Shown piece by piece: positions 37,033 through 37,296 of a stretch of DNA of 64,000 nucleotides. The position numbers and the translations under genes are program-made. Numbering within the stretch: position 1 is the stretch's first letter; every line of letters starts with the position of its first letter. The DNA is from Anolis carolinensis (lineage: Eukaryota). Below the pieces are notes generated by a model. It made no database searches and was not told where the DNA came from. It saw nothing but the letters and a program-made list of their open reading frames with translations. The stretch is from positions 88,645,574 through 88,709,573 of the forward strand of contig NC_085841.1 in the NCBI RefSeq assembly GCF_035594765.1. Reading direction: 5' to 3'.

Positions 37033-37296
37033 CATGGAAGCAGGCTTGAAAGCACCTCTTGGGCACCCACTGGTACTAGGGAAACCCCATCTCTGTGGTG
37101 GAGCTCTGATATGCTTAGCTGTTGAGGGGTGCTCCTTCCGGATATACACCTGTCTGCTCAGATCACACCGTTTACCTGCAAAGCCTGATTTGCAGATACA
37201 CCTCCCTGACATATCACAATTCAGTGACATGGATCCTTGTGGATTGCAGCCACATGGTATGCAGAACAGTTTGTCCAGTGCCCAAAAGTAACTGGG
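37033..37296 (-). CDS. LAMA2: Additional in-frame LAMA2 exon (264 nt, 88 aa, phase 0-0), probable cassette exon absent from the canonical human protein
   Basis: ttctttcttttcaaaag|CCC AGT TAC ... TCC ATG|gtaatc; [90 protein letters not shown]-type Cys spacing, no stop codons. Confidence 0.85.

Follow-up and report, generated by a model that had tools for sequence, protein, structure and literature searches.

We describe here a cassette exon of LAMA2 that is both spliced in and skipped in the source animal, Anolis carolinensis, and that is predicted to encode most of an additional LE module of the laminin alpha-2 short arm. The existence of such an exon is not new: its human counterpart has already been annotated and measured as developmentally regulated, which the original prediction for this DNA missed. 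The built module, its age, and its likely regulator appear to be undescribed. The window analyzed here is the whole stretch of 64,000 nucleotides, and other LAMA2 exons map across it around the cassette. The exons concerned are as follows:

37033..37296, minus strand: cassette exon, 264 nt, 88 codons, phase 0-0, identified from a stop-free translation, contig joints, and predicted isoforms
38330..38436, minus strand: LAMA2 exon 20, 107 nt, phase 1-0, carrying C1 to C7 of the preceding LE module, present as a contig piece in runs X1 and X4
33750..33930, minus strand: LAMA2 exon 21, 181 nt, phase 0-1, identified from its translation and contig joints

The original prediction described a symmetric phase 0-0 exon with 88 codons and 8 Cys, and its coordinates proved exact. 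The minus-strand translation of 37033-37296 contains no stop codons and places Cys at codons 12, 15, 17, 27, 33, 35, 44, and 78. Phase 0 is found both at the end of exon 20 and at the start of exon 21; the 264-nt cassette is symmetric and preserves the reading frame. It is single-copy in its own genome, where the five matches retrieved comprise the exon itself and four weak LE matches.

Splicing was assessed in public sequencing runs. Among the 24 runs listed, 18 contain the exon; none is on record as RNA, their RNA nature is our guess, and their tissue is not given. Contigs of four runs (X1, X2, X4, and X19, the last picked as a non-holder) were placed on 33500-38700. The joint between exon 20 and the cassette (37296/38330) was found in two of the four runs, at a depth of 10.4 in X1 and 9.34 in X4, and the joint between the cassette and exon 21 (33930/37033) in three of the four, at depths of 10.4 (X1), 6.1 (X2), and 9.34 (X4). 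The skip joint, which connects exon 20 directly to exon 21 (33930/38330), was likewise found in three of the four, at depths of 10 (X1), 5.94 (X2), and 10.6 (X4). Each joint is of the GT..AG type on the gene strand. All three occur in X1 and X4, two of the three occur in X2, and none occurs in X19, which is uninformative as a non-holder. The contigs of X1 and X4 cover exon 20, the cassette, exon 21, and otherwise just a single intronic repeat, the pattern expected of spliced RNA. With the runs presumed to be RNA, the recovery of the joints on either side of the cassette, together with the skip joint, upholds the earlier claim of a cassette exon, for which these junctions had been named as the check. 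Because the depths of the inclusion and skip joints are similar, the data suggest that the cassette is included roughly half of the time, contig depth being a crude measure of inclusion.

The introns also hold repetitive sequence. A short, high-copy repeat at 36012-36182 in the intron downstream of the cassette, with 30-nt inverted arms, shows very high contig depth in all four runs; we take it to resemble the end of a squamate SINE. At 35325-35627, two 64-nt inverted arms (89% complementary) lie 175 nt apart, and an X2 contig skips 35338-35604; this element is likely a small non-autonomous DNA transposon. Intronic open reading frames (ORFs) at 28618-30623 (plus strand), 22637-23251 (minus strand), and 49321-49926 (plus strand) are LINE-type fragments with endonuclease and reverse-transcriptase Pfam matches.

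The human counterpart is listed in Table S6 of PMC12925949 as an exon-skipping event of 264 nt at chr6:129292803-129293066, which is exon 21 of LAMA2-206. Its PSI is given as 0.18 in the 1-month (embryonic) and 0.52 in the 5-month (fetal) human heart, with a delta-PSI of 0.41 (PMC12925949). Like the lizard cassette, the human exon is 264 nt long, is skipped, carries a Laminin EGF domain label, and is numbered directly after exon 20; its upstream intron would measure 1082 nt versus 1033 here, if the span in the table starts at exon 20. By length, position, and label, it is the presumed ortholog of the lizard cassette. In the available parts of PMC12925949, the exon is given as a PSI only, with no structure, conservation, regulator, or function, and LAMA2 is not among the four genes of proteomic Table S8. 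The same source lists two human LAMA2 micro-exons, one of 6 nt at chr6:129443063-129443068 (PSI 0.62 to 1, embryonic to fetal heart) and one of 12 nt at chr6:129475390-129475401 (PSI 0.44 to 0.86, embryonic to fetal heart). Because these two also rise, LAMA2 may switch several exons together. The original prediction named no functional description of the exon, and no functional study of it was found in the literature searched, which lay mostly outside subscription journals. The available portions of three laminin reviews (PMC11260871, PMC6744579, and PMC3156650) make no mention of an alpha-2 short-arm splice form, and the 2024 review names alpha-3B alone as a major splice variant of laminin chains (PMC11260871).

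Predicted LAMA2 proteins with the insert were found across lizards, birds, rodents, and teleosts, in agreement with an earlier mention of predicted isoforms with an 88-aa insert; the reach of the exon into teleosts had been missed. In addition to birds, the named proteins come from the lizards Tiliqua, Varanus, Elgaria, and Phrynocephalus, the rodents Myodes and Cricetulus, and the teleosts Larimichthys, Coryphaenoides, Dissostichus, Poecilia, and Cyprinus. For Tiliqua, Varanus, Anas acuta, Anas platyrhynchos, and Pluvialis, the predicted isoforms include some with the cassette and some without it, and all four chicken isoforms among those listed (15 of 137 cluster members) skip the exon. Given predicted isoforms in these four groups, the LAMA2 cassette predates the split of ray-finned and lobe-finned fishes and is at least as old as the bony vertebrates. 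Named amphibian, crocodilian, turtle, cartilaginous-fish, and human proteins with the insert were not met in the protein searches, which cannot show absence. Unnamed ORFs were labeled as teleost-, mammal-, or amniote-type by their similarity to named ones. Croaker and skink are identical at 42/88 residues of the cassette, with 24/44 in its LE portion and 11/33 in the linker, compared with 22/36 in exon 20 and 42/60 in exon 21. The matching intron of a paralogue in this genome (L004/L008), called LAMA1-like from 56% identity at exons 20-21, contains no counterpart of the 3' half of the cassette (score <0). A metagenome scan of 249 candidates gave one locus, an unrelated EGF-repeat gene.

The spacing of Cys is exact in 101 (64 distinct peptides) of 105 stored proteins that bear the insert signature, a filter that itself selects for C33 and C78; the other four are partial, frame-damaged, or longer-loop models. 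Such constancy bears on whether the exon might be a dead or tolerated duplicate with no protein role. This alternative could draw on the fact that no peptide evidence for the cassette was seen, that protein databases show open copies only, and that the Phrynosoma gene model P0010 departs from the cassette after ∼40 residues. It is nonetheless extremely improbable, as the exon is included at a depth close to that of skipping, retains its Cys spacing, is conserved over the fish-tetrapod split, and is regulated in the human heart. The dead duplicated exon that had been raised as the contrary case is largely excluded, and translation and secretion of the inclusion form are highly likely.

Two lineage-specific features were observed in the course of these comparisons. 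In teleost-type orthologues (P0125, P0121, P0123, and P0112-P0120), codon 3 encodes an additional, ninth Cys in 13 of the 14 rows that could be read and Trp in the other; the odd Cys count of the fish cassette could possibly reflect a free thiol or an interchain bond. In the bird LAMA2 proteins P0075, P0100, and P0102, the L4b domain, which lies outside the window, has an internally repeated expansion of ∼35 residues, so that the L4b anchor distance is 59-60 residues in those birds versus 20-25 in fish, lizards, and the vole.

Within the cassette, four segments can be recognized:

37261..37296, minus strand: codons 1-12, giving the exon-20 module an alternative loop d and its C8 (presumed pairing), with W5 in 49/51 rows
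37165..37254, minus strand: codons 15-44, C1 to C6 of the added LE module with spacing 1, 9, 5, 1, 8, matching PF00053 at 35.1 bits (cut-off, 21)
37066..37164, minus strand: codons 45-77, a net basic C6-C7 linker of 33 residues with R48, E55, R69, W70, and G77 conserved in ortholog rows
37033..37065, minus strand: codons 78-88, the motif C78-P-R-G-A-F, with C78 presumed to pair with the Cys that comes first in exon 21 and with C78 and R80 in 52/52 rows

The cassette belongs to PF00053 by its profile match and C1-C6 spacing, and Pfam aligns its residues 15-55 to positions 1-42 of the 49-position profile. It departs from the family at the C6-x2-C7 spacing, which is 33 residues in the cassette, whereas 428 of the 471 modules taken from other laminin-type proteins have 2; most of the long distances from C6 to the next Cys among these 471 modules are LF-type insertions or belong to modules without the last bond. 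In LE modules, disulphides pair 1-3, 2-4, 5-6, and 7-8 (PMC5338690). The earlier claim that inclusion keeps the 8-Cys register holds for both the Cys count and the register. The even count is read directly from the sequence, and the pairings of C12 and C78 are presumed; the first Cys of exon 21 would close the exon-20 module upon skipping and the added module upon inclusion. The added module would have a loop d of 21 residues (predicted) versus 12 in the exon-20 module. C78 scores weakly for a C7-like context, and of two registers scored for the 3' half, one with loss of C7 at codon 47 and one with its displacement to codon 78, both are weakly LE-like.

AlphaFold models of the vole and skink fragments gave mean pLDDT values of 48 and 51, respectively. 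Because known folded neighbors (L4b and the exon-21 module) also failed, the low pLDDT of the linker is no evidence of disorder. A Foldseek search with the low-confidence skink model gave no match at E<=0.001, a PDB sequence search gave generic LE and EGF matches only, and an ESM Atlas search with residues 40-88 led to generic LE clusters (best, 0.86), which we treat solely as a lead.

Most amniote-type rows have a linker of 33 residues, within a range of 28-34, and teleost-type rows have one of 32-37. An earlier description had the usual C6-xx-C7 spacer replaced; a 33-residue linker does stand in that place, but its opening residues are left over from the turn that normally follows C6, of which teleosts keep G50-Y51. 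Amid variable columns and a poorly conserved middle, W70 (50/51), R69 (47/51), R48 (51/52), and E55 (46/52) are nearly invariant, as is the closing motif G-C-P-R-G-A-[YF]. In Varanus komodoensis (P0049), a 5-residue deletion leaves 28 residues and removes the RW motif. The basic character noted earlier is general, with 4-9 Lys/Arg residues and a net charge of +2 to +6 in all 60 linkers parsed of the 62 given (group means, 3.1-4.7).

By the standard LE bonding pattern, the linker would be spanned by no disulphide and would therefore be the sole covalent tie holding the polymerizing tip to the remainder of the short arm. Known laminin insertions offer partial parallels: an L4 domain is inserted between C3 and C4 and an LF domain after a six-Cys module (PMC5338690). 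As in an LF-type insertion, the extra sequence of the cassette follows C6, a G-Y type turn is kept, and the normal C7 position is not Cys. Unlike the 220-residue LF-type domain, however, the cassette insert has ∼30 residues, undergoes alternative splicing, and terminates in a new Cys for which a partner is available. The L4 insertions of alpha and gamma chains resemble the cassette in adding sequence to a continuous LE array, but they are spanned by the 2-4 bond, whereas the cassette linker would be spanned by none.

We tentatively propose, at somewhat less than even confidence, that the cassette encodes a docking joint. RBFOX proteins would switch it on in maturing striated muscle, a setting suggested in part by the rise of the matching human exon in fetal heart; inclusion would add one LE module to the alpha-2 short arm, and the 33-residue linker would act as a flexible joint, presenting the conserved Arg-Trp motif to a docking partner in the matrix or at the cell surface. 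A precedent for one short-arm LE module as a docking site is the nidogen site of laminin gamma-1 LEb3 (LE8), although that site is constitutive and lies in a normal 8-Cys module, and no sequence link between it and the cassette linker was found.

The same linker could instead be a hinge or spacer only, in which the extra LE module lengthens the arm, breaks a rigid rod, and tunes the mesh size or compliance of laminin-211/221 with no specific partner. A nearly fixed length with a variable middle would suit such a role, as would the absence of a bond across C6-C7 in the standard pattern (PMC5338690) and increased inclusion as the human heart matures (PMC12925949). We consider it unlikely: R69 and W70 are kept from fish to mammals and would be needless in a pure spacer unless packed back on the module, and a 220-residue insert at the same position leaves LE5 and LE6 of beta-2 rod-like (PMC5338690). 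It is the near-invariant Arg-Trp pair in an otherwise variable linker that leads us to prefer the docking joint to a plain hinge.

Two functions suggested in the original prediction fared less well. The first was protease sensitivity: a trypsin-like protease or a convertase would cut the basic linker, which no disulphide bridges, and so free an LN-bearing fragment and leave a nonpolymerizing laminin. The charge of the linker and its position as sole covalent link would be in keeping with this, short-arm processing of laminin-332 is known (PMC11260871), and R-x-x-R is present in 15/15 teleost-type and 11/16 mammal-type rows. Yet that motif is absent from all 11 squamate and all 18 bird rows, the canonical furin site R-x-[KR]-R occurs in 0 of 60 linkers, and no such fragment was met in the literature searched, which makes a cleavage switch quite unlikely. 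There is a correspondingly poor chance that an RBFOX-controlled cut site has been kept since before the fish-tetrapod split, making laminin-211/221 severable between its polymerizing tip and its cell-binding arm; if true, the exon would be a splice-set switch for remodeling the heart and muscle network and would release a netrin-like fragment. The second suggestion was heparin binding. A charge-driven heparin/heparan-sulphate binding loop could draw on the net positive charge of every parsed linker, but that charge is modest and mixed with acidic residues, and a conserved heparin motif is unsupported (BBxB in 9/60 linkers, 8 of them squamate); we regard this function as very unlikely.

A duplication of exon 21 had been suggested as the origin of the exon. 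Cassette and exon 21 share their start phase and, without gaps, have their first seven Cys at identical codons (12, 15, 17, 27, 33, 35, and 44), with 20/45 amino acids and 71/135 nucleotides identical, and exon 21 gives the best pairwise score among nine parsed skink modules (122 versus 103.5). However, a cross-species cassette profile does not single out exon 21: exon 21 ranks first in one of three species, modules of other genes reach 33-36 bits versus 32, and scores on a par with that of exon 21 are obtained for the exon-20 module, for the LAMA1-like paralogue, and for further LE modules. Function at the exon 20/21 junction itself demands the same Cys register. Birth of the cassette by tandem duplication of exon 21 is a plausible hypothesis.

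Signals around the exon suggest regulated inclusion. RBFOX binding downstream of an exon promotes its inclusion, and candidate sites lie beside the cassette donor:

37297..37336, minus strand: cassette acceptor, a pyrimidine tract ending in AAG, with a weak-type -3 base
37024..37032, minus strand: cassette donor GTAATC, identified from sequence and contig joints
37002..37006, minus strand: GCATG at intron +27, RBFOX-type motif (candidate site)
36985..36989, minus strand: GCATG at intron +44, RBFOX-type motif (candidate site)

The splice sites had been called good, which is accurate for the GT..AG ends and the pyrimidine tract but not for the acceptor, whose AAG is of a weak type. Constitutive acceptors in the window end in YAG in 7/7 readable cases (eight exons examined, one unreadable). 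Read-through ORFs reveal the in-frame codon just ahead of the cassette: of 21 amniote-type ORFs examined, 20 were readable and all 20 have Lys, necessarily encoded as AAG, and 9/11 teleost-type ORFs have Gln. The weak AAG acceptor, new in the present analysis, appears to be common to amniotes.

Two GCATG motifs within 60 nt of the cassette donor compare with such pairs in 0.34% of 60-nt windows on the same strand, and no GCATG occurs within 300 nt of the exon 20 and exon 21 donors. Across orthologous read-through ORFs, the first 20 intron codons are GCATG-compatible in 31 of 32, with different peptides and in all three frames, against a null of 18.7% of stop-free intron windows in the present stretch; the 32 ORFs are related, and four clades agree. 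A conserved downstream GCATG, missed by the original prediction, is thus seen directly in the window and elsewhere inferred from peptides, real GCATG being present in only a third of compatible peptides in the null. The RBFOX site is (U)GCAUG (PMC8881802), and on this evidence RBFOX control of the LAMA2 cassette is probable. An E9.5 study of Rbfox2-knockout hearts (PMC8881802) does not list Lama2 in its available text or supplement; low inclusion at so early a stage may account for this.

LAMA2 is a muscular-dystrophy gene, and the linker of the optional module is the proposed flexible docking site in the basement membrane of heart and muscle. In LAMA2 dystrophy, a variant that falls in the cassette or in one of its GCATG elements would be classed as deep-intronic. 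The cassette also offers a clean test of an internal short-arm role, the function of L4 and LF domains being called unknown in the available parts of reviews. Work built around the canonical chain uses recombinant laminin-211, canonical cDNA, and variant calling against the reference transcript. Such work misses a form kept across bony vertebrates if an additional module, its linker unbridged, is present in about half of the alpha-2 chains of the heart.
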